Source: Minisyncoccota bacterium (GTDB taxonomy: Bacteria; Patescibacteriota; Minisyncoccia; Minisyncoccales; RBG-13-42-11). Taken from it: 64,000 nucleotides of DNA. The notes under the pieces were generated by a model. That model saw only the letters and a program-made list of their open reading frames with translations. It made no database searches and was not told the origin of the DNA. Numbering within the stretch: position 1 is the first letter of the stretch; the number at the start of each line of letters is the position of its first letter. The position numbers and the translations under genes were made by a program. Location: assembly GCA_016782605.1 (NCBI GenBank), contig JADHYE010000002.1, positions 48,067 through 112,066 on the forward strand, read 5' to 3'. Positions 4,832 through 42,519 of the stretch are shown here, piece after piece.

Positions 4832-5188
4832 TTATGCAAGGTGTGGGATTGCCAAATATGGTCTGTTCTGAAACCTCTGTCGCATCCGATGGTAATCTAA
4901 CAAGAGAAGGAAAAATTCACGAGGGTCAAGCTCTTTTTTTGCTTCTTCGAAATCTATAGTCTCTTCGTAAAGAAGCCATTCATAATCTCTTGGGTCAGTA
5001 ATTTCATTGTCAGATTCGTTGCAATCTTGACAATAAAATATTGGAACAAGAGGATAACCCATACAATCAAATTTTTTCTCAACAGCTCCTGCTTCAGCCC
5101 ACCAAAGTTCCATGAATTTACCACAGAAGCGACAGTTTTTAGCAATTGGTCGTCTTTTCGTCCTTTTAACTCCAATCTCCAGAGCCAT
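4832..5188 (-). CDS. hypothetical Zn-ribbon protein (118 aa)
   Basis: CRFCG ... CQDC cysteine pairs. Strong SD TAGGAGGT with 8-nt spacing. Hairpin agacca..tggtct lies downstream (4806-4829). Confidence 0.6.
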   Translation of the reverse strand: MALEIGVKRTKRRPIAKNCRFCGKFMELWWAEAGAVEKKFDCMGYPLVPIFYCQDCNESDNEITDPRDYEWLLYEETIDFEEAKKELDPREFFLLLLDYHRMRQRFQNRPYLAIPHLA

Positions 5189-5236
5189 TTTTATCTACCT
5201 CCTAAAAGAACTATAATTTTATATTATTCATTCAGA

Positions 5237-5262
5237 CAAAAAAATCAAGCCCTAGCGGCTTG
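5237..5262 (-). terminator. intrinsic terminator after iorB
   Basis: Minus strand CAAGCC-GCUAG-GGCUUG followed by AUUUUUUUG. Confidence 0.7.
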
Positions 5263-5271
5263 AAATTGTCA

Positions 5272-5295
5272 GCTCCGGAGGTAGGATTCGAACCG
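5272..5295 (-). other. tRNA 3'-end-like fragment (T-loop plus acceptor 3' strand)
   Basis: Minus strand GGTTCGAATCCTACCTCCGGAGC. No matching 5' half, D arm or anticodon arm lies upstream. Confidence 0.35.
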
Positions 5296-5904
5296 CTAAT
5301 TCTTTTTCTTCGCCAACTCAAACGTTTTCAAGTTTAATTCTAGATATTTTTCCGGAATTACTTCTTTAATCGCTTTCTGGATTGATGCTGGTTTCAAAGG
5401 AATTAATCCTTTAAACGCAGCAAAACTTATCAAATAAATTCCGGAAACAACGCTTTTCCCCAGTTTTTCCTGGCAGAGTTTATCAGCTGGAACTACCTTA
5501 ATCTTTTTACTAATTTCCTTTAACTGAAATAAAATTTCAGCTTCAGGCAAAGGTTTTTTCAAAGGAATTGGAATTATAAGCTGATTTATTAAAAAGTTTG
5601 TTTTCGGATTGGCAAAATATATTCCATTTAAAATCTCCTGCTCTTCCAAACCTAAAACCAAATCTGCTTTTCCTTGGGCAACCATTGGAGAAAAGATTTT
5701 CTTTCCGAATCTGATATGCACTTCAACAGAACCACCTCTCTGAGATAATCCGTGCAGTTCAGAAGTCCTAACATCATATCCCTCAAACGTAGCTGCTTCT
5801 GAAATTATCTGCAAAAGAGTAATCAGGCCCTGTCCGCCAGTGCCGACTATGACCATATTGAATTGCCTTGCCCCGTTAGAAATTTGATTTGTTTTCTTAT
5901 TCAT
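5296..5904 (-). CDS. iorB: indolepyruvate/2-oxoacid:ferredoxin oxidoreductase, beta (gamma-domain) subunit
   Basis: MVIVGTGGQGLITLL... matches the pyruvate/ketoisovalerate oxidoreductase catalytic domain. Start is ambiguous: ATG 5904 lies inside element A1, ATG 5856 lies after it. The track start 5937 is unlikely. Confidence 0.8.
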   Translation of the reverse strand: MNKKTNQISNGARQFNMVIVGTGGQGLITLLQIISEAATFEGYDVRTSELHGLSQRGGSVEVHIRFGKKIFSPMVAQGKADLVLGLEEQEILNGIYFANPKTNFLINQLIIPIPLKKPLPEAEILFQLKEISKKIKVVPADKLCQEKLGKSVVSGIYLISFAAFKGLIPLKPASIQKAIKEVIPEKYLELNLKTFELAKKKN

Positions 5905-5949
5905 AATAAATAATTTTATTCCCACGTTAATACGCAATTTCTAACGGGG
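5871..5949. repeat. A-family long-stem element A1
   Basis: ccccgttagaaatt (5871-5884) pairs with aatttctaacgggg (5936-5949). 51-nt AT-rich loop. Confidence 0.8.
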
Positions 5950-5958
5950 TTAACTTTT

Positions 5959-7605
5959 TTAATCATTTTTTGGAACAACGAACTTACAAGGATGTTTAGA
6001 AATAATTACTGAAACTTCATCTTTTGCCACAAACTCTTTTATTGTATTAATGAATTCCTTCTGGTTCACAGGATCAATTGTTTTAACGTGTTTTACGCCG
6101 CAGGCCCTGACTAGCTTCTCAATGCTAATATCTGTCTTTATACCCACAGAAACAGGATGTGGCTGGTGTCCTGTCATAGCAGTGGTTTCATTATTTAGAA
6201 TAATGATTAAAGGATTTGATTTGTTAAAAACAGTGTTTATCAAAGCTGGAATGCCAGAATGAAAGAAAGAAGAATCACCAACAAAAGTAATCAACTTCTG
6301 AGAAGTGGCTTGCCCTGAATTAAATTGAAGGGCTTTTTTAATACCATGGGCAATACCTACTGAAGAGCCCATGCAAGACAAATAATCTTGGAGATTTACC
6401 GGTGAATTGCCAAAAAGCATATAGCAGCCTATCTCTCCTCCAAATATCACCTTATTCACATCAACTGCTTTTTTAATGGCTGAAATAACCAGCCAGTAAG
6501 GACAACCAGGACAAAGCTGCGGAGAGCGCTTTAAAGCTTTAAAATCATATTTTACAGATTTATATTTCCTACCAGTTATTTTCGCGACAGCTTCAACTAC
6601 ATATTCTGGCTTTAATTCTCCAACTACTGGCAGCAAGTTTTTCCCAAAAACCTCCAGTTTGCAGTTAGCTTGCTTAGCCAGCCTTTCTACCTCTTTTTCC
6701 AAATGAGCTTCCAGCTCCTCAACCACTAAAACCTTTTTAAGATTTTTAATAAATGATTTTATTCCTTTTTCTGCCAAAGGATAGGAAAAAGTAAGCTTTA
6801 AAACAGGCAAATCCAGTTTCAGTTCTGTTAATGCTTCTTTTACATATAGATAAGAAACTCCAGAAGTAATAATGCCTATTTTTTGCTTTTTGCCCTCAAT
6901 CTTCAAAAAAGCCTCGGAAAAACTTCTAATCTTTTCTATTTTCTCAAACAATTCCCTTTTCATTTCCAGGACTCTTGGGGGCAAAGTGACGAATCTTTTC
7001 ACATCTTTGATAAATTCTCCTTTTTTCAAAACTTGAGACTTGAGATTTGAGATTTTAACAGGCATTTTCTGATGAGCCACTCTGGTGGTTGTTCTAACCA
7101 TTACTGGAATATTGAACTTTTCTGAAATCTGAAAAGCTAGTTTTACAAAATCCAGACATTCTTGCGGATCTGATGGCTCGAGAATGGGTATATGGATAAG
7201 ATTATCCATTGGCCTGGTGTTTTCCTCTGATTGAGCTGAACTGTGGCAAGAAGGATCATCAGCCACGATAATAACTGTTGGCCCTTTGGTTCCTGTATAA
7301 ACAAAGGGAATTAAAGCGTCCAAACAAACATTTAAGCCAAAGTTCTTCATAGCTACCAATGTTTTCAAACTGGAAAAACTGGCGCCAATGCCAGCTTCCA
7401 AAGCCACTTTTTCATTAGTCGAAAATTCAAAGTAAACGCCAGCATCTTTGGCAATCTTAAAGAAAGTGTTGCCGATTTCCGAAGCAGGTGTCCCAGGATA
7501 AGTTGAAACAAAATTGACGCCTGCTTCCAAGGCGCCTCTAACGATTGCTTCATTACCCAATAAGATAATTTTCTTCCCACCTTCTTTTGAAAGGAGTTTA
7601 TCCAT
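5959..7605 (-). CDS. iorA: indolepyruvate:ferredoxin oxidoreductase alpha subunit (TPP-binding)
   Basis: 548-aa ORF. LLGNEAIVRGALEAGV..STYPGTPASEI N-terminus and a TPP-binding region GDSSFFHSG. Confidence 0.8.
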   Translation of the reverse strand: MDKLLSKEGGKKIILLGNEAIVRGALEAGVNFVSTYPGTPASEIGNTFFKIAKDAGVYFEFSTNEKVALEAGIGASFSSLKTLVAMKNFGLNVCLDALIPFVYTGTKGPTVIIVADDPSCHSSAQSEENTRPMDNLIHIPILEPSDPQECLDFVKLAFQISEKFNIPVMVRTTTRVAHQKMPVKISNLKSQVLKKGEFIKDVKRFVTLPPRVLEMKRELFEKIEKIRSFSEAFLKIEGKKQKIGIITSGVSYLYVKEALTELKLDLPVLKLTFSYPLAEKGIKSFIKNLKKVLVVEELEAHLEKEVERLAKQANCKLEVFGKNLLPVVGELKPEYVVEAVAKITGRKYKSVKYDFKALKRSPQLCPGCPYWLVISAIKKAVDVNKVIFGGEIGCYMLFGNSPVNLQDYLSCMGSSVGIAHGIKKALQFNSGQATSQKLITFVGDSSFFHSGIPALINTVFNKSNPLIIILNNETTAMTGHQPHPVSVGIKTDISIEKLVRACGVKHVKTIDPVNQKEFINTIKEFVAKDEVSVIISKHPCKFVVPKND

Positions 7606-11882: not shown

Positions 11883-12734
11883 TTAAATATTGAATAATTT
11901 CTTAGCATTTTCAGTAGTTACTTCCAATATTTCTTCATAGCTCAATTTCCTAATTTTAGCAATTCTTTCAGCAACGTATTTTACATATATTGGCTCATTG
12001 CGGCCGATCATGGGAGGCGGCGTCAAGTAGGGGCAATCTGTCTCAACCAAAATCTTATTAAGCGAAATTTTCTCAATAACTTCGTCCAAATTCAACTTAA
12101 AAATTATTCCGTTGAATCCGAGATAAAAACCCATATCAAGATATTTTTCAGCTTGCTGCCAATCCCCAGAAAAACAATGAATAACTCCTTGCAATTTACC
12201 GCCATACTGCCCGAGTATTTCAATAAGTTCATCGTGTGCCGTGCGGCAATGGAAAATTATCGGAAGATTCAATTCTTTAGCCAAATCAATCTCTTTTAAA
12301 AACGTTTCTCTCTGTTTTTCTTTAAATACTTCCAGCTTTGTTTTGGTCTTCGGCCGATAATAATAATCCAGGCCTATTTCGCCGATAGCGACCACCCGTC
12401 TCTTCGACGGGCCGCCGATGAGGCGGCTTTCTGATTTTGCTAATGCTTTATACTTCTCGTAATCAAAATCTTCGTTTTGCGTCTTAAAAGCTATTTCTTC
12501 CGTATCTAGCTTTGTCTTAAAGATTCCTTCAGCTAAATGAATCGGATGAAGACCGATAGCGGCATATACGCCTTGTTCATGCTTTTCAGCCATTTCAACC
12601 GCTCTTTTTGACGTTTCGTAAGTTGAGCCGACGTTTATTATCCAAACATCGTTATCTAAAGACCGACGAATCACTTCGTCGGCATCATCTTTGTAAGCAT
12701 TAAAATTAAGATGAGCGTGGGTGTCAATCATCAT
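11883..12734 (-). CDS. tatD: TatD family metal-dependent hydrolase
   Basis: MIDTHAHLN, AIGEIGLDYY, ETDCPYL motifs. Contains an extra GC-rich segment at 12396-12428. Confidence 0.85.
   Translation of the reverse strand: MMIDTHAHLNFNAYKDDADEVIRRSLDNDVWIINVGSTYETSKRAVEMAEKHEQGVYAAIGLHPIHLAEGIFKTKLDTEEIAFKTQNEDFDYEKYKALAKSESRLIGGPSKRRVVAIGEIGLDYYYRPKTKTKLEVFKEKQRETFLKEIDLAKELNLPIIFHCRTAHDELIEILGQYGGKLQGVIHCFSGDWQQAEKYLDMGFYLGFNGIIFKLNLDEVIEKISLNKILVETDCPYLTPPPMIGRNEPIYVKYVAERIAKIRKLSYEEILEVTTENAKKLFNI
12396..12428 (-). repeat. twin GC hairpins inside the tatD coding sequence
   Basis: cccgtc-tcttc-gacggg directly followed by gccgcc-gatga-ggcggc. Encodes SRLIGGPSKRR just before the conserved VVAIGEIGLD. 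Confidence 0.5.
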
Positions 12735-14808: not shown

Positions 14809-15838
14809 CCGCTTCTTCTGAACTTATGCGGTCTTTTCTTTTTTTGAAAAAATCACTGATGAATTCAAAAAAGATTCCGGCTAAAGGAATTGCCAGGATA
14901 GCGCCTAACAATCCCCAAAGCTGTCCGCCAATCAATAAAGCGATTAAAACCAAAACTGGCGGCAATCCGATGAATTTTTTGCTCAAAATCGGAGTAAGAA
15001 TATTTCCCTCTATCTGCTGGATCAGAAAGAAAACAATCAGAATGAATATGGCTTTTAACCAGTCCTCCAAGAAAACCAAAATAGCAATTACTCCTCCAGC
15101 CAATACCGGACCAATAATGGGAATAATGTTGGTGATGCCGGCAAACAAACCCAAACTGAAAGCGTAATCAATCTTAAACAGTTTTAAAGCGAGAAAAGAA
15201 GCCAATCCCACGAAAAAGCAGCATAAAACCCTTGTACCGAACCATCCTGAAATCTTCTGCTGAGATCTTTCCCAAACGCTTACTGCATAATCCTCGTTTT
15301 TCTTCGGGAAAAAAAGCCTGATCGCTCTTTCTGCCCATTTGCCTTCCAGAGAAAAGAAAAAAGCAAGGGAAAAAATGGTAAAAGCGGAAAAGATTCCACC
15401 GAAAACAGCTGAGAGAGCAGTAAAAATATTCGAAGAAGCGCCTAATAACCAATTTTCAGAAGAGGCAATGAAACTTTCAAAGCTTTCAAAAGCTCCTATA
15501 CCCAGCCATTTTAAAGGCGGAGTTATTTTTTCAAAGTATTGCGAGAAAAGTTCGGCGAACTGCCTGATTTCAGGGATAAAAGACAAAGATATCAAATATA
15601 TTGCTCCCCCAAAAAAGCCGAAAATCAAAACATAGACCAAACCGGTAGCCAGAACGCGGTGAACTCTTCTCCTTTGCAGGAAATCTATTGCCGGATTGAA
15701 CAAAACCGAAATAATCAAAGCGAAAATGATCAAAATCAAAATATCCCTGATTTCATAAAGGAGATAAATGATAAGAGCGGCCAAAGCAACCTTTAAAATG
15801 CTCCTCCAGGAAATATCCAATAGTTTTTCGCTGTTCAC
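14801..15838 (-). CDS. AI-2E family transporter (PerM-like permease)
   Basis: 345 aa, multi-TM, family-like C-terminal half. The GTG start overlaps the last nt of element A2. Confidence 0.75.
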   Translation of the reverse strand: MNSEKLLDISWRSILKVALAALIIYLLYEIRDILILIIFALIISVLFNPAIDFLQRRRVHRVLATGLVYVLIFGFFGGAIYLISLSFIPEIRQFAELFSQYFEKITPPLKWLGIGAFESFESFIASSENWLLGASSNIFTALSAVFGGIFSAFTIFSLAFFFSLEGKWAERAIRLFFPKKNEDYAVSVWERSQQKISGWFGTRVLCCFFVGLASFLALKLFKIDYAFSLGLFAGITNIIPIIGPVLAGGVIAILVFLEDWLKAIFILIVFFLIQQIEGNILTPILSKKFIGLPPVLVLIALLIGGQLWGLLGAILAIPLAGIFFEFISDFFKKRKDRISSEEAVA

Positions 15839-15970
15839 CCCGTTAGAAGTCTGTCTTTATATGGCTTTAAACCAATTTCAGACATCCTTTGTTTTTTGAT
15901 TATACCCCGTTATTGCAGAACAGAAAAAATTTTAATTTAAATTTTTTCTGACAAAGACTTCTAACGGGGT
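15837..15970. repeat. A-family long-stem element A2
   Basis: accccgttagaagtct (15837-15852) pairs with agacttctaacggggt (15955-15970). An extra half-site accccgtta lies at 15904-15912. The loop holds a TATAAT (minus strand, 15904-15899). Confidence 0.85.
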
Positions 15971-17245: not shown

Positions 17246-18610
17246 TTATTTTCCCAGCTTATTCTTAAAAAGCTCAACTAAGTCTTTTGTTTTTACTCTT
17301 TCTTGTTTCATAGTGTCGCGGTTACGGACGGTCAAGTCATCATTTTTTAAAGTTTCAAAATCTATGGTTAAACAGAAAATCGTACCAACCTCGTCTTGAC
17401 GGCGATATCTTCTGCCTATTGAACCTAATTCATCGTACTGACAAACAAAATGAGGCTTTAAAAGTTGATAAATCTCTTTGGCTTTTTTGGTTAACTCCTG
17501 CTTGTTTTTAACCAAAGGAAGAACTGCTATTTTCACCGGCGCCAAACTTTTATCCAGCTTAAGTGTCACCTCCGTTTCTTTTGTCGATTCTGTTGTTTTC
17601 GTCCTGCCGCCTTTTGTTTCGGAATAAGCGTCAATTAAAAAAGTCAAAAAGCTTCTGTCGGCGCCAGCTGAAGTTTCAATGATGTAAGGATAGTACTTTT
17701 CTTTTATTTCCTCGTCAAAGTAGCGCAAATCCTGCCTGGAATGCTTTGCGTGGTTTGATAAATCCCAATCCCCCCTGTCGTGGATACCTTCAATTTCTTT
17801 CCAACCGAAAGGAAACTTATATTCAATGTCAGCCGCTCTTTTGGCGTAATGCGCCAGATCTGATTTTTCCACTTCTCTAAAGCGCAAATTCTCTTTTTTC
17901 ACGCCAAGCTTTAAATACCAATCCATTCTTGATTTTTTCCAGTTTTCAAAGAATTTGTCAGCTGTTTTCGGATGGCAAAACCACTGCATTTCCATCTGTT
18001 CAAATTCTCGAGTTCTATAAACGAAGTTACCCGGAGTAATCTCATTCCTAAAAGCTTTGCCGATCTGAGCTATACCAAAAGGAACTTTCAGGCGCATCGA
18101 ATTTAAAACATTAAGAAAATTAAGATATATCCCCTGGCAGGTTTCCGCCCTCAGATAAGTAGCAACTGCTTCATTTTCAAGAGAACCGACGAAAGTTTTC
18201 ATCATTAAATTGAATTTCTTCGCTTCTGTCAGTTCGCCGCCGCATTCTGGACACCCCGCACCAGAACCTTCGGTTCGGTACGGGGCAGGCTTTTTATTCT
18301 GGATTTCATCTAATTTAAATCTCTTGTGGCATTTCTTGCATTCAACCAGCTCATCGGCAAATCCGGCACTCAAATGGCCTGAAGCCTGCCAAACTTGAGG
18401 AGACATTAAAATAGCTGCATCCAAGCCGACAATATTCTCCTGCTTTTTTGTCATCTCATCCCACCAAGCTTTCTTGATATTATTCTTCATTTCCGTTCCC
18501 AAAGGCCCGAAATCATAGCAAGAACCAAAACCGCCGTAAATCTCTGAAGATTGAAAGATAAAACCACGCCTCTTGGTCAATGAAATGATTTTTTCCAAAA
18601 GATTTTCCAT
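17246..18610 (-). CDS. glyQS: glycine--tRNA ligase (alpha2 type)
   Basis: RRGFIFQSSEIYGG and the class II core. Start is probably ATG 18610 (MENLLEKI), 1 nt after the upstream stop. The track start is 18640. Confidence 0.92.
   Translation of the reverse strand: MENLLEKIISLTKRRGFIFQSSEIYGGFGSCYDFGPLGTEMKNNIKKAWWDEMTKKQENIVGLDAAILMSPQVWQASGHLSAGFADELVECKKCHKRFKLDEIQNKKPAPYRTEGSGAGCPECGGELTEAKKFNLMMKTFVGSLENEAVATYLRAETCQGIYLNFLNVLNSMRLKVPFGIAQIGKAFRNEITPGNFVYRTREFEQMEMQWFCHPKTADKFFENWKKSRMDWYLKLGVKKENLRFREVEKSDLAHYAKRAADIEYKFPFGWKEIEGIHDRGDWDLSNHAKHSRQDLRYFDEEIKEKYYPYIIETSAGADRSFLTFLIDAYSETKGGRTKTTESTKETEVTLKLDKSLAPVKIAVLPLVKNKQELTKKAKEIYQLLKPHFVCQYDELGSIGRRYRRQDEVGTIFCLTIDFETLKNDDLTVRNRDTMKQERVKTKDLVELFKNKLGK
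18254..18289 (-). repeat. D-family palindromic element inserted in frame in glyQS
   Basis: Minus strand CCTGCCCCGTACCGAACC-GAA-GGTTCTGGTGCGGGG, 36 nt. Encodes PAPYRTEGSGAG between the KCHKRF and CPECGG zinc knuckles. Confidence 0.8.
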
Positions 18611-18611
18611 A

Positions 18612-20288
18612 TTAGCGAACAATGCTCTTTTCATAGCCAACGCTTGAATCGTCCGGCAAACCAGTATTAATTGAAGGGCTGGTAGTCTGCAAGGTTTCGC
18701 CAGTCCACTGGTCCTGACCGCTGATCCTTGCTTCGTTAATTAAGACAGGTGTCTGGCCCATCTGGCTTGAATCCGGCCAAAAGGAAATCTGGAATGAAAT
18801 ATTTGGCGCTTGATTCAAAATTCCCTGGCCGGCTGACAAATCTCCGATGTTCCAAACTATTTCCTTGGATTGGGAATCAAAAGTGAAATTGTTTTTTTGT
18901 TCTTCCGGAAACATCTTGCCCGTCAAACTGACATTGCTAGGTAAAGTAGCTTTGACCTTAACGTCTTTCATATCGTTGTAATAATTCTTAACCTGCCAGG
19001 AGATTGTGTAGGTGGTTGATTGTCCGACAGTCGGCGGAAGAGGGCCTGAGTTTCCAAAAACCTCATCATTAAAATACCCTTTTTGGAAAACAGCCAGTTT
19101 TGAATTAACTTTGTTGGTGAATATTTCTTTGACCTGACTCAAAAAGATCGTTGAAGTAATCTGCGGATTCGCCTCTGACGGGCTTTTAATTTCCTGGAAG
19201 TCTTTCAATTTTATCCAGAATTCAACCTTGCCTTCTTCCTGCGGATGCAAGAACTGAAGCTTGCTTACTCTTCTCCAGTCCCAAATTATGGAATTATCGC
19301 CCGAAGTGAAATCGCCGTCCAGAGTCTTGGTAGTAACAAAATCAAACGAAGAGCCGCTTAAGGTAACCAGCATGAACATATCGTTCAAAGCTTCTTCGCC
19401 AATGTTCTTGAAGAAAATCTCATAATGGAGCAAATCGCCCGGGTTAGCGACAAACTTCGGATTACCGTTGATTTCCTGAGTGATGTACAAAGTGGGCTTA
19501 ATAATAGATATTCCTTTTGACACATCCCTCAAAATAATGAAGTTGCCGTCTTTCCAGCTGCCCAGCTTCGCCCTAAAAATCTTTTCTTCTCCGATGGTAC
19601 CGGAAAGCTTGCCTGAAATTTGGATTCTACCTCCCTGGGTTTTATTCAAAAGGCCGATTTCCCATTCTGTTTTTTCCAGAGACTTAGGGTTAGAATCGAC
19701 AAACTCAAAACCCGAAGGATATTCAACCATTATCCTCAAGTCGGAAAGCGGATAATCGATATTCGAGAAATAATTCAAATTAAGGCTGAATATTTTACCA
19801 GATTCAATTTTTGCCGGCAAATCAAATTCCAAATTAAGAGGAATTTTCTTGATTATTGTCGTGAATGAAGTTTTTGATGTATAGCGGGCTCTTAAATTCT
19901 TTGGAGAATAACTCAGAGAAACCTTAGCTTCCTTAACTTCTCCTTCCTTACCCATAAGCCGTCCTTTAAAAATGAAAGTTTTTTCCTGACCGGGATAAAT
20001 CGCTCCTCCCAGTTCTTCTGACTTTTTAACCACCCTTAAAGAGGTATAGTCTGTGGGCACAGCATACTCAGGATAGTCAAAAATTAACTCGGGCTCTTCC
20101 AAATTAACATTCCCGTTGTTCTTATATTTGACAACGTATTCAATCTCCTGAAGCAATTCTGTTTCTTCCGGTCCCAGAATCTCAAACTTCAAGACTTCTT
20201 TCGAATAAACGTTTCTCTGGTAATAATAAAAACCGATAATCCCTACGACTACCGCCAAAACGATGATAAAAATAGTAAGTTTTCTCAT
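18612..20288 (-). CDS. membrane-anchored hypothetical protein, probable surface/beta-sandwich repeat protein
   Basis: 558 aa with an N-terminal TM (LTIFIIVLAVVVGIIGFYYY). The rest is beta-rich and repetitive. No enzyme motif was seen. Confidence 0.6.
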   Translation of the reverse strand: MRKLTIFIIVLAVVVGIIGFYYYQRNVYSKEVLKFEILGPEETELLQEIEYVVKYKNNGNVNLEEPELIFDYPEYAVPTDYTSLRVVKKSEELGGAIYPGQEKTFIFKGRLMGKEGEVKEAKVSLSYSPKNLRARYTSKTSFTTIIKKIPLNLEFDLPAKIESGKIFSLNLNYFSNIDYPLSDLRIMVEYPSGFEFVDSNPKSLEKTEWEIGLLNKTQGGRIQISGKLSGTIGEEKIFRAKLGSWKDGNFIILRDVSKGISIIKPTLYITQEINGNPKFVANPGDLLHYEIFFKNIGEEALNDMFMLVTLSGSSFDFVTTKTLDGDFTSGDNSIIWDWRRVSKLQFLHPQEEGKVEFWIKLKDFQEIKSPSEANPQITSTIFLSQVKEIFTNKVNSKLAVFQKGYFNDEVFGNSGPLPPTVGQSTTYTISWQVKNYYNDMKDVKVKATLPSNVSLTGKMFPEEQKNNFTFDSQSKEIVWNIGDLSAGQGILNQAPNISFQISFWPDSSQMGQTPVLINEARISGQDQWTGETLQTTSPSINTGLPDDSSVGYEKSIVR

Positions 20289-20392
20289 ATACCGAGTTTT
20301 TATTTATAAGTTCGATGAGATAAATCTCATCTCTCACTCAATTCATATTTATCTCTCGAACGCGAAATGAAATAAATATTTCATTGAGCAAA

Positions 20393-20426
20393 CGAAGGTG
20401 AAGAAGAGGACTAAGGCCTCTTCGCC
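20393..20426 (+). repeat. E-family partial copy
   Basis: cgaaggtgaagaagagg-actaagg-cctcttcgcc shares gaaggtgaagaag plus a hairpin with 1347-1379. Confidence 0.55.
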
Positions 20427-20444
20427 TTTAATTATATTAGCAAA

Positions 20445-21173: not shown

Positions 21174-22025
21174 TTAAAATTTCTCGATAACTTCTTCAAA
21201 AGAATCCAAACGCTCTTTCAGCTTTGGATGCACCTGATATTTTTTAAGTTCCTCTATCTGTTTTTTGACTGAGTCGATAAAATTATAAAACGACTCTTCC
21301 TGTCTTTCTGGATTATCCAAATTGTTTTTTATTTCTTCTTCTGACATTGAAAGATAAAAAAGCGGAATGTTATTGATGTTCCCCTTTTTTAACTCCATTT
21401 TGCCAGCCTTTTTTTCTAAAAAAATGCCGTATCTAAGGTTGGCTCCGCCTTTATACCGGTTTATTTCAGAAACTTTATTCTTTTTCTTTTCAAACGTTTC
21501 TCCACTATTAACTCCTACCTCATCAAAGGCGCAAACTATATTTCCGGTTTCTCTTTCTAAAATTATATTGTCTATATTATTTTCAAAGTCATCATATTCT
21601 GAAGTTCTGGTTACAATAAAATCTTTCCTTAATTTTTTATGAAAAATAGAAGTTGTCAACATTTCAAAAACCTCGCCCGTAGATACACCCTTTAATGCTT
21701 CTTCTTTAGGATGAGCCCATGCCGATAAATTTCTGCCAATATCCGCTTCTTTAAATCTCTTTTTTAAATCTTTAACGCGCGCCTTGTGCGATTCAACCAA
21801 TGAATCCCCATGAGTTTTTCTGAAATCATCCATATTAATCCTTGCTTTTTCGTTAATAGGAATACCCTCTTGTCTCAATTCCTCAAACATTTTCTTCATG
21901 TAATCCTTTAACTCTCTTATCCTGTCTTTTTTTTCGCCCCGTTCTTGCTGCTTTTCCAATACTTCGCTCTCATTTTTCTCAAATTCAGGAGTTGGTTTTA
22001 TAAGTTGTGGTTCTTTTTCTAACAT
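21174..22025 (-). CDS. hypothetical protein (283 aa)
   Basis: Long ORF abutting recO. Charged, no recognisable motif. Confidence 0.55.
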   Translation of the reverse strand: MLEKEPQLIKPTPEFEKNESEVLEKQQERGEKKDRIRELKDYMKKMFEELRQEGIPINEKARINMDDFRKTHGDSLVESHKARVKDLKKRFKEADIGRNLSAWAHPKEEALKGVSTGEVFEMLTTSIFHKKLRKDFIVTRTSEYDDFENNIDNIILERETGNIVCAFDEVGVNSGETFEKKKNKVSEINRYKGGANLRYGIFLEKKAGKMELKKGNINNIPLFYLSMSEEEIKNNLDNPERQEESFYNFIDSVKKQIEELKKYQVHPKLKERLDSFEEVIEKF

Positions 22026-24900: not shown

Positions 24901-25033
24901 ACCCTGTATATCAACATCCAGGCATTTTCAATGCGAAAACATCCTGAAGATTGTTTTTATTTAATAATATATTCAACATAATAACTTTAATTAAACTTTT
25001 AATGCGAAGCATTCTGGATGTTGTATTACGGGG
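24901..25033. repeat. C-family long-stem element C1
   Basis: accctgtatatcaacatccag (24901-24921) pairs with ctggatgttgtattacgggg (25014-25033), with a 3x3 internal loop. Small hairpins gcatt-ttc-aatgc and aatgc-gaa-gcatt sit just inside each arm. The element fills the whole gap between the upstream stop and the ileS ATG. Confidence 0.8.
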
Positions 25034-25037
25034 CATA

Positions 25038-25613
25038 TTAATTAACCTTTCTTAATTCACCCACTTTGATAAAGTTTTTTTTGTAGAAAACCTCTTTTAA
25101 AAGCTTCTGATTGCTTATCTTCTTGATTATGCCCTCAAACAGCCACAAAGGATCGCCGTGACCGACAATTAAAATTTTCTTGTTTTTGTATTTTCTATCA
25201 ATATCATTTAAAAAACTGAGCATTCTCTTTTTAAGGTCAGCCCAGCTCTCTCCCTCAGGGGGCCTTTTAGAAAACTTTCTTTTCTTGTAATTGAAAAACT
25301 TGTAATATTCTTCTTTAAGTCTGCCGTGAAAAACGCCAAGATTTACGTCTCTAAGCCTTTTGTCAAAATTTATTTTCTTAATATTTAATTCTCTTGAAGC
25401 GATTTTTGCGGTTTCTTTTGTCCTGTAAAAATCAGAAGAATAAATGAAATCTATTTTTTCTTTTTTAATTCTTTTCAAACTTCTTTTTACCTGATCTTTC
25501 CCTTTTTGTGTCATTTTAATCGAGAAATTGTCCCTCAAAGGATAAATAAATCTCTTTTTTTTAACCTGATAAACGTTTTCTCCGTGCCGTATAATAAAAT
25601 AATGGTTATTCAT
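25038..25613 (-). CDS. histidine phosphatase (phosphoglycerate mutase-like) family protein
   Basis: YFIIRHGE catalytic RHG motif and ILIVGHGD. ATG 25613 is preferred over track start 25646, which overlaps argS. Confidence 0.75.
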   Translation of the reverse strand: MNNHYFIIRHGENVYQVKKKRFIYPLRDNFSIKMTQKGKDQVKRSLKRIKKEKIDFIYSSDFYRTKETAKIASRELNIKKINFDKRLRDVNLGVFHGRLKEEYYKFFNYKKRKFSKRPPEGESWADLKKRMLSFLNDIDRKYKNKKILIVGHGDPLWLFEGIIKKISNQKLLKEVFYKKNFIKVGELRKVN

Positions 25614-27221: not shown

Positions 27222-27286
27222 ACCCCGTTAGATATTAATAAAATAATGAATCAATCTTAGGTGTTTACAACTTTATCTAACGGGGT
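27222..27286. repeat. A-family long-stem element A3
   Basis: accccgttagata (27222-27234) pairs with tatctaacggggt (27274-27286). Confidence 0.8.
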
Positions 27287-27298
27287 AAACTTAAATTA

Positions 27299-37018: not shown

Positions 37019-39595
37019 TTAGAATAATGTTTTTTGCTTCAATAATTTCTTGCTTTCACCCTGATCAAAAATCCTGATCTTGCCGAAAACTCCGTCATAT
37101 CCTGGCTCTTTGTTTACCCTCCCCTCTCTTACTCTTAATATTCCTTCTGCAATCTCAGGCAAAGCAGCTGATTTCAGCCTTTCTGGCGAAGTATTGAGAA
37201 GAATCTCAAATTCAGAGCCGAATTCCTCAATCAGGCTTTGGTATGTTTTTTCTACTTGTTTGCTAGCTACGGTCATACCCAAGGTATCAGCAACAATTTC
37301 TACTAGGGGAACTAAACTTTTAAAAGGTATTGCATTTTCCGGCTCAAATCCTTCTTTTTTATCAGACAACGCATCAACCCTGTTTAAAACTCCGACGGTT
37401 AACGGCTTGCCGCAAACCGGACAGATACCGTTGTATTTTTTGGTTTCTGTGGGAGATAATCTGACCTCGCAGTTCCGGTGTCCGTCAAAATGATATTTGC
37501 CTTCTTCCGGAAAAAACTCAATAGTGTATAAAAACTTCTTTGGATCTTTGGTTTTAATCGCTTCGACAATTGATTGATAGCTTAACTCTGTATCAAAAAC
37601 ATTGGCTTCCCTGCCTATCTTCCTTGGACTATGCGCATCGCTGTTTGAGATAAGGGCTGTTTTTCGGCCGTCTGGCATACGCCAAAGCATGTCTGGAGAA
37701 GCGCTCAAACCTGTTTCCATTGCATAAATGTATTTTGATAAATCTTCAAAACATTCTTCAATTGAATCAAATCCTGATTTTGAACCGAAAATGGCGAACC
37801 ATGGGGTCATGCAATTATGAACCGCAGCAAACTCACTAAGATAAGAATTGTCTCCTTCAACTTCTAAATTATAAACTTTACCTTTATACTTTTTAACTTT
37901 AATGTCTAATACTGGTAAATAAATATTTTTCTTGTCTATCCAGCAATGCCTTCGTTCTAATTTATAATTGAATTTTTTGAATTCAAGAGTTTTTAGCAAT
38001 CCAAACAAATCTTCAAAAAATGATAATTGCCTAAATATAAATGAAGAATGTTGGGCTTTAATAATCCTATTTTCCTTTTTATATAAATGAGCATATTTTT
38101 TATTAAATACTTCTTTGGTTTGTTCATAAATAGAAGGAATAATTCCTAGTCGAAGCAGAATAATCTTCATTTGATTCATGAGTTCCCTAGAAGAAGTAAC
38201 GCCACCATCGCCTCGCCACCATCCCCTAAAAACCTCTACTTGTTTTTCCAATGGTAAATTTAACATCCAAGAAGGCAAACACTTGGTATAAGCTTTTCTA
38301 AACTCAGTACTATTATAAAAAATCTGGCTAAAAACTTTTGCTAAAATTTTTGAGAAATAGATAATTTCCACAGCATTTACATCTTTCCTTCTATACAAAC
38401 GAGGTGAAGAAAGGCCAAAAACTTTCTTCATCAATAATTTTACATCCTTAATATATTTATTCTCATTATAATGAAAACAAAACGAAACCGAATCTCTATT
38501 ATCTGCATAACCCTCCGAAAGATAATATCCTACTAATCTACAAAATTCTTTATCTATCTTTATTACATTGTTTAATTTCTTGTCAACTCTTCCTTTAGTA
38601 CAACTTATTTTATCTTGATAAACTTTAAATAATTTTCCAGAAAGATAACTATTAAGTTTAATCTCTTCTATGTTTTTTGTAATATTATTGAACCTTGGAA
38701 AAATAAGGATATCGCCCTTTTTTACTTCTTTCGCTTGGACCCATTGCGGTTTATATTCTTTAAAATAGGGATGTTTGCACCCTCTACTTTTGTGATAAGA
38801 ACAATTTGGCTTACAGATAGTATGTGAACAATTTTTACAGTCCTTATAACTTTTAATTATATAGAATGGATGCTCTTTCGTTGTTTTCAGGCCAATTCTA
38901 AAATTATACGGTCTTATATTATAAACTGGTCCCTTATAAGGTCTAGTATAGATTTGTTTAACTTTCTTCAATCTTCCTTGGTGAGTATAAACTTTATCAC
39001 CAACAGAAATATCTTTTATCGGTTTAACCCCAAGATTGCTATGTAAAAAAGTATCAGGCGGTAAACAATGAGCAGGTATAACTAAGCAGTCTTCTGAAGC
39101 GCTTAAAACAATCTTTGCCAATTCTTTGGCATCCAGTCCCAGAATCGGCCTGCCGTCTGATTTTAAATTGCCGATCCAGCCCAACTGAACGTTAATCTTT
39201 TCTACTGCCTCAAAAGAAGGAGCTAAGATCAAAATATGAATTTTCCTGACTCTGTTGTTAGTCAAAGAGGATAAATCCTCTTTTTCACCCTTCGCTGCGG
39301 CTCGGGTTTTAGAATAAATGCAGCTTATTTCATTGGTCAGGATAAAACGCGTACCGTTATCCTGTTTTTTCATTTTAAAAAGCCCGAGTTCTGCGGGCTC
39401 TAATTTATCTTTTAAAGATTTAAACCACTCCGGATGGCTGAAGTCGCCAGTCCCTAAAACCTTAATGCCCTTGATCTTCGCCCACTTATCAAGATTTTCC
39501 AAATCCATGTCCCTAGAAGTGGCTCTCGAATATTTGCTGTGAATGTGAAAATCCGCTATGAACTTCATCCCAATAAAGCTGCCCAAAATAGGCAT
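37019..39595 (-). CDS. EndoQ-like PHP-domain endonuclease interrupted by an intein
   Basis: Exteins: FIADFHIHSKYSRATS, LGTGDFSHPEWF, VIPAH|CMTPWFAIFGSKSGFDS, and C-terminal zinc finger CPVCGKPLTVGVLNRV. Extein total is 440 aa. Confidence 0.8.
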   Translation of the reverse strand: MPILGSFIGMKFIADFHIHSKYSRATSRDMDLENLDKWAKIKGIKVLGTGDFSHPEWFKSLKDKLEPAELGLFKMKKQDNGTRFILTNEISCIYSKTRAAAKGEKEDLSSLTNNRVRKIHILILAPSFEAVEKINVQLGWIGNLKSDGRPILGLDAKELAKIVLSASEDCLVIPAHCLPPDTFLHSNLGVKPIKDISVGDKVYTHQGRLKKVKQIYTRPYKGPVYNIRPYNFRIGLKTTKEHPFYIIKSYKDCKNCSHTICKPNCSYHKSRGCKHPYFKEYKPQWVQAKEVKKGDILIFPRFNNITKNIEEIKLNSYLSGKLFKVYQDKISCTKGRVDKKLNNVIKIDKEFCRLVGYYLSEGYADNRDSVSFCFHYNENKYIKDVKLLMKKVFGLSSPRLYRRKDVNAVEIIYFSKILAKVFSQIFYNSTEFRKAYTKCLPSWMLNLPLEKQVEVFRGWWRGDGGVTSSRELMNQMKIILLRLGIIPSIYEQTKEVFNKKYAHLYKKENRIIKAQHSSFIFRQLSFFEDLFGLLKTLEFKKFNYKLERRHCWIDKKNIYLPVLDIKVKKYKGKVYNLEVEGDNSYLSEFAAVHNCMTPWFAIFGSKSGFDSIEECFEDLSKYIYAMETGLSASPDMLWRMPDGRKTALISNSDAHSPRKIGREANVFDTELSYQSIVEAIKTKDPKKFLYTIEFFPEEGKYHFDGHRNCEVRLSPTETKKYNGICPVCGKPLTVGVLNRVDALSDKKEGFEPENAIPFKSLVPLVEIVADTLGMTVASKQVEKTYQSLIEEFGSEFEILLNTSPERLKSAALPEIAEGILRVREGRVNKEPGYDGVFGKIRIFDQGESKKLLKQKTLF
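37814..39067 (-). mobile_element. intein with a LAGLIDADG homing-endonuclease domain (418 aa, residues 177-594)
   Basis: Starts with Cys (AH|CLPPDTF) and ends VHN|C. Contains LVGYYLSEGYADN and FRGWWRGDGG dodecapeptide motifs. Boundaries checked codon by codon. Confidence 0.8.
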
Positions 39596-42339: not shown

Positions 42340-42519
42340 TGCCCCCAGCAGGAATTTCACCCCGCACCTTTTTAATGTGTCCCCACTCCGATTCGAACGG
42401 AGATTATAACCTCCGGAGGATTATGCTTTATCCATTAAGCTATGGGGACATAAAGGTGCGGGGCAGGCCTGCATTTTAAGTTCCGGAAACTCATGTTCTA
42501 TCCATTAAACTATAGGGGC
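42340..42519 (-). tRNA. interrupted tRNA-Arg(CCG)-like gene (5' 52 nt + 108-nt insert + 3' 20 nt), possibly a pseudogene
   Basis: 42519-42468: GCCCCTA-TA-GTTT-AATGGATA-GAAC-A-TGAGT-TTCCGGA-ACTTA-AAAT-GCAGG. 42359-42340: TGAAATT-CCTGC-TGGGGGC-A. Acceptor pairs 7/7 and T-stem 5/5, but the T-loop is non-canonical. Confidence 0.65.
42378..42449 (-). tRNA. tRNA-Arg (anticodon CCG), canonical 72 nt, nested inside another tRNA gene
   Basis: GTCCCCA-TA-GCTT-AATGGATA-AAGC-A-TAATC-CTCCGGA-GGTTA-TAAT-CTCCG-TTCGAAT-CGGAG-TGGGGAC-A. All stems pair. CCA is not encoded. Confidence 0.9.

Follow-up and report, generated by a model that had tools for sequence, protein, structure and literature searches.

The stretch of DNA analysed here, 64 kb in length and referred to below as the window, has a GC content of ~37% and encodes proteins that match a 'Candidatus Pacebacteria' metagenome-assembled genome of the Candidate Phyla Radiation (CPR, or Patescibacteria). 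On its minus strand lies a gene for a glycyl-tRNA synthetase (GlyRS) and inside this gene, in frame, is a 36-nt palindromic element with a GC content of 69%. A second copy is present in the gene for the DNA polymerase/3'-5' exonuclease PolX, and a larger version that carries a tRNA sits within a gene for tRNA-Arg(CCG) (coordinates in Table 1). All three are on the minus strand, which is the sense strand of the host genes. A covariance model of the element family, built from 54 copies, gives exactly three matches in the window, to the copies in GlyRS (E = 5e-13), PolX (E = 1e-11) and the tRNA locus (E = 3e-4). The 13-mer CYTGCCCCGYACC occurs three times against an expectation of 0.11, a number that none of 100 shuffles reached.

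The GlyRS open reading frame (ORF) shows 100% identity to an NCBI 'Candidatus Pacebacteria' glycine--tRNA ligase (P0001), the deposited protein beginning 10 codons downstream of the TTG start of the ORF, and matches GlyRS sequences of the PDB with E = 4e-144. The insert encodes PAPYRTEGSGAG and is flanked by the zinc knuckles CKKCHKRF and CPECGG. Sequence, ORF and fold all agree with the original prediction of an in-frame palindrome at this position. The element is made up of a CCTG overhang, a 9-bp GC arm, a bulged T, a 5-bp tip stem and a GAA loop, and is predicted to fold with 4 unpaired nucleotides and a 14-bp stem with one bulged U, closed by the GAA loop (-23.5 kcal/mol; z = -4.75 relative to dinucleotide shuffles, 0/200 of which folded as well). 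The fold of the complementary strand is weaker, at -19.0 kcal/mol, because one G-U pair turns into C-A.

Two relatives, L001 (89% nucleotide identity) and L003 (83%), are syntenic with the window over 21 kb and have a clean empty site at this position. The empty sites read GAGAAAAAG/TGTCCAGAATGC and AAAAAAGG/TGCCCGGAGTGC, while the window reads AATAAAAAG, the 36 nt and then TGTCCAGAATGC. Filled and empty sites differ by exactly 36 nt, with the boundary ambiguous by one G, and comparison with L001 and L003 reveals no target-site duplication. The same is seen in the protein, where exactly the 12 residues that had been proposed as a lineage-specific insertion are absent (...EKK/CPECGG) from the three closest GlyRS sequences, which are 84-88% identical. 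The 36 nt are thus a clean, lineage-specific insertion. An 8-nt direct repeat, TCCAGAAT, found on both sides of the copy was judged to be coincidental as it is not adjacent to the element and is missing in other carriers.

The linker between the zinc knuckles is hypervariable. Among the best 120 GlyRS orthologs it has between 0 and ~40 extra residues, with at least ten unrelated kinds of insert, and it is also longer in solved GlyRS sequences. As the AlphaFold model of the GlyRS is too poor for the insertion to be mapped on it (mean predicted local distance difference test score, pLDDT, 63.8; insert region coil with pLDDT ~58-63), the tolerance of the linker is argued from this variation in length. 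In five of these 120 orthologs the very same site is occupied by the element. The GlyRS genes of carriers show an overall identity of only 72-75%, while their copies of the element agree to 92%, and one of the differences between carriers is compensatory, GAACC/GGTTC becoming GAAAC/GTTTC. The 75 nt upstream of the window copy are 80% identical to L001 and the 75 nt downstream 95%; the upstream codons (DEIQ) partly resemble the flank of another carrier.

In PolX the copy lies in frame between the polymerase and PHP parts, as the original prediction had it, and differs from that in GlyRS at 3/36 positions. Six of the best 120 PolX orthologs, comprising five distinct sequences, carry the element at the identical site, and the nearest five or six orthologs of every GlyRS or PolX carrier, an identical duplicate aside, are all or nearly all non-carriers. 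The copy is present in the relative L125 and absent from the relative L124, which has KFKNSK instead. Along the whole gene the window tracks L124, its closest relative (92% identical), at informative sites, with the exception of a single run of ~30 consecutive sites, spanning ~140 nt and centred on the element, where it follows L125 (84.5% identical overall). Judged from this pattern of sites, the PolX copy lies in a recombination tract of ~140 nt. Older copies are decayed, with substitutions on one side of a pair: L128 reads GCCACG and P0303 reads SSAG. Such unpaired substitutions suggest that the structure is not under selection at each locus.

Other, unrelated inserts are seen at both places, at the GlyRS site in P0014, P0016, P0018, P0026, P0040, P0064, P0087, P0119 and others and at the PolX site in P0317-P0350. 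Examples are TPHQRTGGG, GQTRDRLGTVPGQSLK, GDPLSFKGERVSL and AT-rich repeats of the QNPKSKIQNPK type, and several look palindromic as DNA. A 19-residue insert, RPQPISNGLGRPALIQGRW, is found in the PolX of Nealsonbacteria. The GlyRS and PolX linkers gather short inserts of many families.

The third copy was expected to share its termini with the hairpins, which it does, its arms being CCTGCCCCGCACC and GGTGCGGGG. It is a real insertion into a gene that is uninterrupted in relatives, and it belongs to the same palindromic family. It is not a plain hairpin but an inverted-repeat version that holds a complete tRNA, which proves to be a common form. The locus reads GCCCC...AATGCAGG, then the element (CCTGCCCCGCACC tttatg, the inner tRNA, cattaaaaa GGTGCGGGG) and then TGAAATT CCTGC TGGGGGCA. 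In the syntenic relatives L124 and L125 the orthologous tRNA-Arg(CCG) is intact (...GCAGG TTCGATT CCTGCTGGGGGCA) and nearly identical to the 5' part in the window, and removal of the element in silico restores an outer tRNA-Arg(ccg) that is recognised by ARAGORN. At the junction the TTCG of the relatives' T-loop corresponds to TGAA in the window, 4 nt being replaced and not duplicated. The inner tRNA differs from the outer in every stem and is therefore foreign and no local duplicate.

Two observations concern the surroundings of such tRNA genes. In L111 (6692-6730, minus strand) a plain 36-nt hairpin lies between the T-stem and T-loop of a lone T-arm and acceptor fragment, GTTGG/CTT..hairpin../TTCAAAT CCAAC CACGCGCA, located between genes for tRNA-Ile and tRNA-Ser; this is the same position in the tRNA as the insertion in the window. 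In the relative L125 (538 kb), genes for the RNA ligase RtcB and the RNA cyclase RtcA are found at 1-173 and 5136-6176, a few kb from tRNA-Arg(CCG), which is relevant only if an RNA cut-and-rejoin step is involved.

To look beyond the window, one genome per species was scanned with the pattern GCCCCGYACCGAN{6,16}TGRTGCGGGG. Among the 120 matches listed ~55 are of CPR type, so that counts for the family are minima, and the expectation of further copies elsewhere is borne out by these at least ~55. They are found in Saccharibacteria, Parcubacteria, Microgenomates, Uhr-, Nomura-, Doudna-, Wolfe-, Vogel-, Terry- and Peregrinibacteria and, in small numbers, in WOR-3, Omnitrophota and Dehalococcoidia bins; the local GC content of these copies is 31-60%. 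The aligned consensus is (G)C(Y)T-GCCCCGYACC-GA[variable]TC-T-GGTGCGGGG-T(T), that is an unpaired 5' C(C/T)T(G), a 9-bp GC arm (CCCCGYACC / GGTGCGGGG), a bulged T and a variable tip. In the minimal form of 33-36 nt the tip is a 3-5-bp stem closed by a CTTG or C-GAA-G loop. GCCCCG is preceded by CTT or CCT in 30/52 copies and the bulged T is nearly invariant; the terminal arms are perfect over 9 bp, extending to 14-16 bp in the forms with cargo. The arms, being fixed by the search pattern, carry no information, whereas the tip was left free in it and is hence informative. Its pairs covary, one being AU in 25 copies and GC in 17 and the next CG in 31, AU in 8 and GC in 3, with changes on both sides in 34 cells against 13 expected, a score reached in 0/500 shuffles. 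Copy number is low: there are three in the 64 kb of the window and none in ~43 kb from the closest relative, and most 8-kb loci have a single one, the number per genome being extrapolated from such fragments.

About half of the matches listed in the genome scan are from Streptomyces (L005, L011, L013, L026, L030, L075 and ~55 others), where the hairpin GCCCCGCACCGA...CTGGTGCGGGGC is located 15 nt beyond the 5S rRNA, with CTTTTC after it. With its T-run this is an rrn terminator, which was treated as convergent and left out of the family, because in a hairpin only about half of the positions vary independently; there may be a deeper link between this hairpin and stable-RNA operons. A phage origin was also rejected, the only two matches in IMG/VR being plain chance hairpins in contigs of 67-72% GC. 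Direct repeats flank some members of the family, CAAATTCCAAATTCCA being present on both sides of the copy in L031 (3239-3307) and L033 and L053 being of this kind too. A subfamily with 5' CAT (L056 in AlaRS, L052 in an IMPDH-like gene, and L079) has the 7-nt direct repeats TCAAAAG, TTCAAAG or TTAAAAG; these may represent target duplications, reflect a target preference or belong to a longer composite element. Full-text searches of the literature on CPR/Patescibacteria found no description of a palindromic, in-frame or tRNA-nesting element of this type. A survey of tRNA introns in Patescibacteria reports group I introns only, with no mention of a palindrome, hairpin, T-loop, nested or inverted-repeat element (PMC13011429).

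Many copies lie in long ORFs. ORFs were called from stop to stop, except for ten host genes that were checked by Pfam and confirmed as IleRS, RecG, a GT4 glycosyltransferase, TopA, SecA, PCMT, AlaRS, RNase J, CysRS and an AspRS-type synthetase. The element occurs in both orientations and in five or more of the six frames, with sense copies reading xAP(Y/H)R...SGAG and antisense copies SPHQNKFGAGQA, PRTRTSSVRGR or NPAPEQVRYGA. The proposal of a constant frame relative to the element therefore holds within the window and fails across the family. As read from its sequence the element is free of stop codons in all six frames. Of the copies in ORFs of at least 200 codons, 32/33 are a multiple of 3 in length, compared to 10/19 copies elsewhere (Fisher p = 2e-4), 34-nt forms being common outside long ORFs. 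That ribosomes read through the copies, and that these are not removed, is argued chiefly from this bias.

The forms with cargo were sought in metagenomes with arms 75-105 nt apart (CCCCGCACCN{75,105}GGTRCGGGGCARG), giving 122 elements among the matches listed, where chance would produce, as a rough estimate, matches of the order of ten; 17 matches in loci of >58% GC look like chance. At least 28 of the 122 contain a complete tRNA. The tRNAs carried are Arg (CCT, CCG and GCG), Val, Glu, Met, Pro, Asn, Asp, Gln and Cys and, relative to the asymmetric CYTG end and with the window copy included, 15 are forward and 14 reverse. The flanks of these elements are themselves tRNA sequence. When the element is cut out, ARAGORN finds an outer tRNA with the same anticodon and on the same strand in 10/29 tRNA-carrying copies (Arg CCG twice, Pro CGG, Asp GTC, Gln CTG, Val TAC and Glu TTC four times) compared to 0/94 elements with other cargo, and by eye most of the remaining tRNA-carrying copies lie within truncated or decayed remnants of the cognate tRNA. 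Insertion is into the T-loop, D-loop or anticodon loop. In L217 and L177 the outer genes have lost stems, which suggests that the outer copy is dead and the inner tRNA the working gene. At the junctions 2-4 loop bases are replaced, from which no exact rule emerged; TGAA directly follows 16/29 tRNA-carrying copies and does not follow those in GlyRS or PolX.

Other cargo is also found. Among the genome loci the arms enclose a tRNA-Arg(GCG) in L032 and non-coding inserts of 85 nt and 130 nt in L100 and L079, respectively. Approximately 25 elements share a core of ~90 nt (...AGCCGnAGGCG..CCGCGnG...TTCGGrATTGG) with covarying extensions of the arms, for which Rfam searches by E-value gave no match. 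For nine of the 25 a tRNA gene lies no more than 130 nt away, in most cases one for tRNA-Leu or tRNA-Ser with the element just upstream of it, and the core looks like an undescribed structured RNA or DNA element. The 36-nt hairpin is best seen as the empty form of an inverted-repeat cassette.

Table 1. Positions of the element copies, their host genes and other features, in the window unless another locus is named
Feature	Position	Strand	Description
Class II (alpha2-type) glycyl-tRNA synthetase	17246..18640	-	464-aa ORF; Pfam PF00587 (tRNA-synt_2b) and PF03129 (HGTP_anticodon)
36-nt empty hairpin element	18254..18289	-	In frame in GlyRS; minus strand CCTGCCCCGTACCGAACCGAAGGTTCTGGTGCGGGG; from sequence, fold, empty sites and covariance model
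DNA polymerase/3'-5' exonuclease PolX	31225..33015	-	100% identical to P0241; PolX Pfam domains
Second 36-nt copy	31723..31758	-	In frame in PolX; encodes LAPYRTKGSDAG
108-nt element with cargo	42360..42467	-	Same arms (CCTGCCCCGCACC ... GGTGCGGGG); between T-stem and T-loop of the resident tRNA-Arg(CCG)
Inner intact tRNA-Arg(CCG)	42377..42449	-	ARAGORN; Rfam tRNA, 60.7 bits
Outer tRNA-Arg(CCG), 5' part	42468..42519	-	Acceptor, D and anticodon arms, 5' strand of T-stem
Outer tRNA-Arg(CCG), 3' part	42340..42359	-	TGAA ATT CCTGC TGGGGGC A
~90-nt core element, L146	13661-13775		Example among L131-L250
~90-nt core element, L183	1913-2031		Example among L131-L250
~90-nt core element, L147	1305-1421		Example among L131-L250
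~90-nt core element, L242			Two copies; example among L131-L250
30-nt insert	12398..12427	-	In frame in TatD-like gene
Intergenic inserts, 126-137 nt	~15838..15968, ~20292..20428, ~24904..25039		Window-only relative to L001 and L003
33-nt insert	21959..21991	-	In frame in hypothetical protein
tmRNA gene	27817..28174	+	Rfam, 133 bits
PHP/TIGR00375-family gene with intein	37019..39595	-	858 aa; Pfam Hint, Intein_splicing and LAGLIDADG_3

The window contains further inserts of different kinds. That in the TatD-like gene is missing from both syntenic relatives and is built of two GC hairpins side by side, which belong to a different family, GCCGCC-TCAT-C-GGCGGC and CCCGTC-GAAGA-GACGGG. The first of the intergenic inserts has terminal inverted repeats, CCCGTTAGAAGTCT...AGACTTCTAACGGGG, and looks like a MITE (miniature inverted-repeat transposable element). 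The insert in the hypothetical protein, CTCCTGAATTTGAGAAAAATGAGAGCGAAGTAT, is also window-only and is non-palindromic. Near the tmRNA gene the alignment with relatives is heavily rearranged at ~27240..27370, beside smpB. The PHP/TIGR00375-family protein contains an intein that bears a LAGLIDADG endonuclease, and its best matches are intein-bearing homologs; the ortholog in the closest relative (L124 4921-6195) has 424 aa and no intein.

It would seem fairly likely that GlyRS has recently acquired, in these 36 nt, a copy of a selfish inverted-repeat (hairpin) element that acts at the DNA level and is translated through. On this explanation the element would rarely be inserted at a new site, without target-site duplication, by an enzyme acting in trans. 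At a guess, and by analogy, this could be an enzyme that recognises a folded single-stranded DNA hairpin, as do those of the REP/RAYT (repetitive extragenic palindrome/REP-associated tyrosine transposase) and IS200/IS605 systems, in view of the 5' bases left unpaired, the T outside the helix, the great stability of the C-GAA-G loops and the lack of a target duplication. The occupied allele would then move laterally to related genomes by homologous recombination with the conserved gene sequence on either side, which would result in the same site being occupied in scattered lineages. The sequences of the carriers point to such lateral movement with co-conversion of flanks. Reaching a new site for the first time is a step of its own, called rare because of the three copies in the window and the lack of any in the stretch available from the closest relative. 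Copies that are free of stop codons and a multiple of 3 in length would persist in essential genes at linkers that tolerate variation in length, where they would be translated as 11-12 extra residues and imprecise loss would destroy the host gene. Those carrying a tRNA would disrupt a resident tRNA of the same anticodon and supply a working replacement, making them hard to lose, and their co-orientation with the disrupted gene would be explained if they depend on its promoter. The element appears to be selfish rather than useful.

A number of points weigh against this explanation. No autonomous version, with arm pairs 135-5000 nt apart enclosing an ORF, is present in the ~1.5 Mb of loci examined, and no enzyme for movement of the element was found in these loci, in which no HUH-directed search was made. 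The change from TTCG to TGAA at the tRNA junction is not accounted for by a simple insertion. The element combines a low copy number with arms that are conserved across phylum-level lineages, the opposite of typical REP or MITE families, and the conservation could reflect a cellular function of the arms. In part their apparent invariance is built in, since most of the arm positions were fixed by the search patterns. The metagenome loci carry no taxonomy. Intergenic copies and the conserved class of non-tRNA cargo cluster beside tRNA genes, which also fits a role in RNA processing. Finally, translation of the 12 residues is a prediction from sequence, with peptides that would contain APYRTEGSGAG or TEGSGAGCPECGGELTEAK.

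The cellular function just mentioned could be that of a host RNA signal, the arms forming a leader-trailer stem for processing, stabilisation or termination and the hairpins in protein genes being stray or co-opted copies. The enclosure of tRNAs and of the conserved ~90-nt RNA-like cargo by the arms would fit with this, as would the proximity of 9/25 elements with the unassigned cargo to tRNA genes (within 130 nt) and of short hairpins to tRNAs in L045, L041, L116 and L111. The arms, being perfect inverted repeats, would form a stem in the transcript of either strand; their sequence is conserved across CPR phyla and a near-identical hairpin is the 5S rRNA terminator of Streptomyces. GC-rich palindromes also flank tRNA genes in Neurospora mitochondria (Yin 1981, as cited in PMC8811140). 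Such a signal, however, provides no reason for in-frame copies in both orientations in GlyRS, PolX, SecA, TopA and others, nor for absence from the closest relatives or decay in older copies, and most tRNAs in the loci examined are without the arms. Destruction of the resident tRNA by the tRNA-carrying copies, with decay of some outer genes (L217, L177), is parasitic behaviour. A processing role for its own cargo would be compatible with mobility, and no alternative to it. We consider an explanation by a host signal to be unlikely. Still less probable is that the arms are a DNA-uptake or recombination signal, spread by biased transformation of naturally competent CPR cells and not by transposition. 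The recombination tract centred on the PolX copy is consistent with this, as are the divergent upstream flank of GlyRS (80%, against 95% downstream) with its partial likeness to the flank of another carrier, the occupation of the same site in scattered lineages and the conservation across phyla of sequence, beyond structure. Known uptake sequences, however, are 9-12 nt long, occur about once per kb and arise by point mutation, unlike discrete insertions of 33-36 nt at three copies per 64 kb. First arrival at new sites and the tRNA cargo would be unexplained, and the idea overlaps with the step of lateral spread proposed above.

Removal or skipping of the element after transcription, by an endonuclease with the RtcB ligase or by ribosomal bypassing, would give a GlyRS that lacks the 12 residues. 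The hairpin is more stable as sense-strand RNA (-23.5 versus -19.0 kcal/mol, through the G-U pair), there are RtcB and RtcA genes near the tRNA locus in L125, Patescibacteria are unusually rich in introns (PMC13011429) and ribosomes of yeast mitochondria are documented to bypass GC clusters in translation (PMC8811140). Length and frame would then be irrelevant, yet 32/33 copies in long ORFs are multiples of 3 compared to 10/19 outside, and half of the copies in genes are antisense to the window orientation, so that no single RNA motif is available. The element has neither bulge-helix-bulge geometry nor an Rfam match to an intron or ribozyme. Removal or skipping is very improbable. In an archaeal-type intron the exon-intron junctions would show a 3-nt bulge on each strand with a helix of 4 bp between the two, while at the tRNA locus the unpaired 2 and 5 nt lie opposite one another at the base of an uninterrupted 14-bp helix. 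With respect to group I or II introns and known ribozymes, an Rfam search of the window at gathering thresholds returned only tRNA and tmRNA and E-value searches on the elements with cargo returned nothing relevant. A site resembling an integron attC was also rejected, the R-box consensus AAC/GTT being absent. It might still be asked whether unrelated GC-rich hairpins have come to be alike by chance or convergence, given that a hairpin halves the number of independent positions, and the Streptomyces rrn terminators, the two high-GC phage hairpins and the 17 high-GC metagenome matches are probably cases of this. For the CPR copies chance resemblance is effectively refuted by the three window copies where 0.11 are expected, by the unpaired CYT, bulged T and arm sequence common to copies in genomes of 31-50% GC, and by the 92% identity between copies at identical sites of orthologous genes.

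If the element is mobile, as seems the better explanation, it can be compared with known systems. The original prediction drew a parallel with the Rickettsia palindromic elements (RPEs), which are outlined as palindromes of ~100-150 bp inserted in frame in Rickettsia housekeeping genes (Ogata et al. 2000; PMC10969869). In behaviour the parallel is good. Both are palindromic repeats of small, AT-rich, reduced genomes, found in frame at tolerant positions of housekeeping genes, where they add a peptide, as well as within RNA genes and intergenic DNA, and we know of no transposase for either. Insertion in frame with preservation of the ORF is shared, but size and host set the element apart from membership of the RPEs, these comprising ten families of ~100-150 bp that are restricted to Rickettsia at dozens per genome. 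The Patescibacteria element is of 33-36 nt, at low copy number, and keeps one arm sequence across CPR phyla, in both orientations and several frames and with tRNA cargo, and no kinship in sequence with RPEs is expected. By analogy, the GC-rich palindromes of mitochondria are at least as close a parallel. The GC clusters of yeast var1 are described as in-frame, size-polymorphic and spread by gene conversion, and those of Magnusiomyces mitochondria, termed 'byps', are found inside coding regions (PMC8811140). Like the present element, mitochondrial clusters are short GC-rich palindromes in an AT-rich genome, with in-frame polymorphic insertions that spread by gene conversion; they are recombination hotspots and, in Neurospora, conserved palindromes flank tRNA genes. 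Unlike it they are organellar and of unrelated sequence, byps, over which the ribosome skips, can have lengths that are not divisible by 3, and the AG/TAG terminal repeats of the yeast clusters, which are read as target duplications, are missing at the GlyRS, PolX and tRNA junctions. To our knowledge a tRNA nested in its cognate tRNA has not been reported for these clusters.

The imperfect hairpin of 20-40 nt, the conserved unpaired 5' tetranucleotide, the extrahelical base and the lack of target duplication are shared with the REP/RAYT and IS200/IS605 systems, and C-GAA-G loops form very stable mini-hairpins in DNA. REPs, however, are extragenic, species-specific and present in hundreds per genome, whereas many of the copies described here are intragenic and there are three per 64 kb. 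Nor is a fixed target tetranucleotide established, with TGAA following just over half of the tRNA-carrying copies and neither the GlyRS nor the PolX copy. MITEs are similar in being non-coding, with terminal inverted repeats, presence/absence polymorphism, occasional in-frame fusions and captured cargo. The element is below their usual size of 50-500 bp and has no target-site duplication at the one unambiguous pair of filled and empty sites, and a search of the ~1.5 Mb of loci revealed no parent insertion sequence that shares its ends. As with tRNA-targeting integrative elements, homing introns and inteins, highly conserved essential genes serve as safe places to land that are widely shared, the harm done is offset, and flanks are co-converted during lateral spread. 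Integrases that target tRNAs duplicate only the 3' part of the tRNA, while here a complete, divergent tRNA is inside a loop of the disrupted one, and the element has no endonuclease, ribozyme or splicing domain, unlike homing introns and inteins. It is also distinct from the group I introns of Patescibacteria tRNAs (PMC13011429). It belongs to neither the RPE nor the mitochondrial GC-cluster families.

A broader reading, which is possible but held only tentatively, is that these are cassettes found throughout the CPR, recognisable by a single conserved pair of 9-bp GC arms, moved by machinery that acts in trans and homing without an endonuclease of their own. Loaded cassettes would enter the T, D or anticodon loop of a cognate tRNA, replace it and become indispensable, being transcribed from the host promoter, while empty cassettes of 33-36 nt would lodge in frame in essential protein genes. 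Spread between species would follow DNA uptake, with the conserved host gene providing the homology arms. Were this true, it would be an undescribed kind of selfish element, with gene replacement serving as an addiction strategy for tRNAs.

The genomes of CPR bacteria are among the smallest and most streamlined known. Even so, a repeat that resembles a parasite is tolerated within their genes for aminoacyl-tRNA synthetases, SecA, topoisomerase and tRNAs, and the family accounts for part of the odd, short 'CPR-specific insertions' in proteins. The element is a ready marker for recombination and gene flow among uncultivated lineages, and annotation of tRNAs in CPR genomes can miss genes that are interrupted or nested. 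The conserved arms offer a concrete starting point in the search for the responsible enzyme, which may be specific for hairpins of DNA or RNA and may have practical uses. How in-frame palindromes of the RPE type move becomes testable in data that are larger and more diverse than those for Rickettsia, and the forms with a tRNA suggest a mobile element that destroys an essential gene and supplies a replacement for it.

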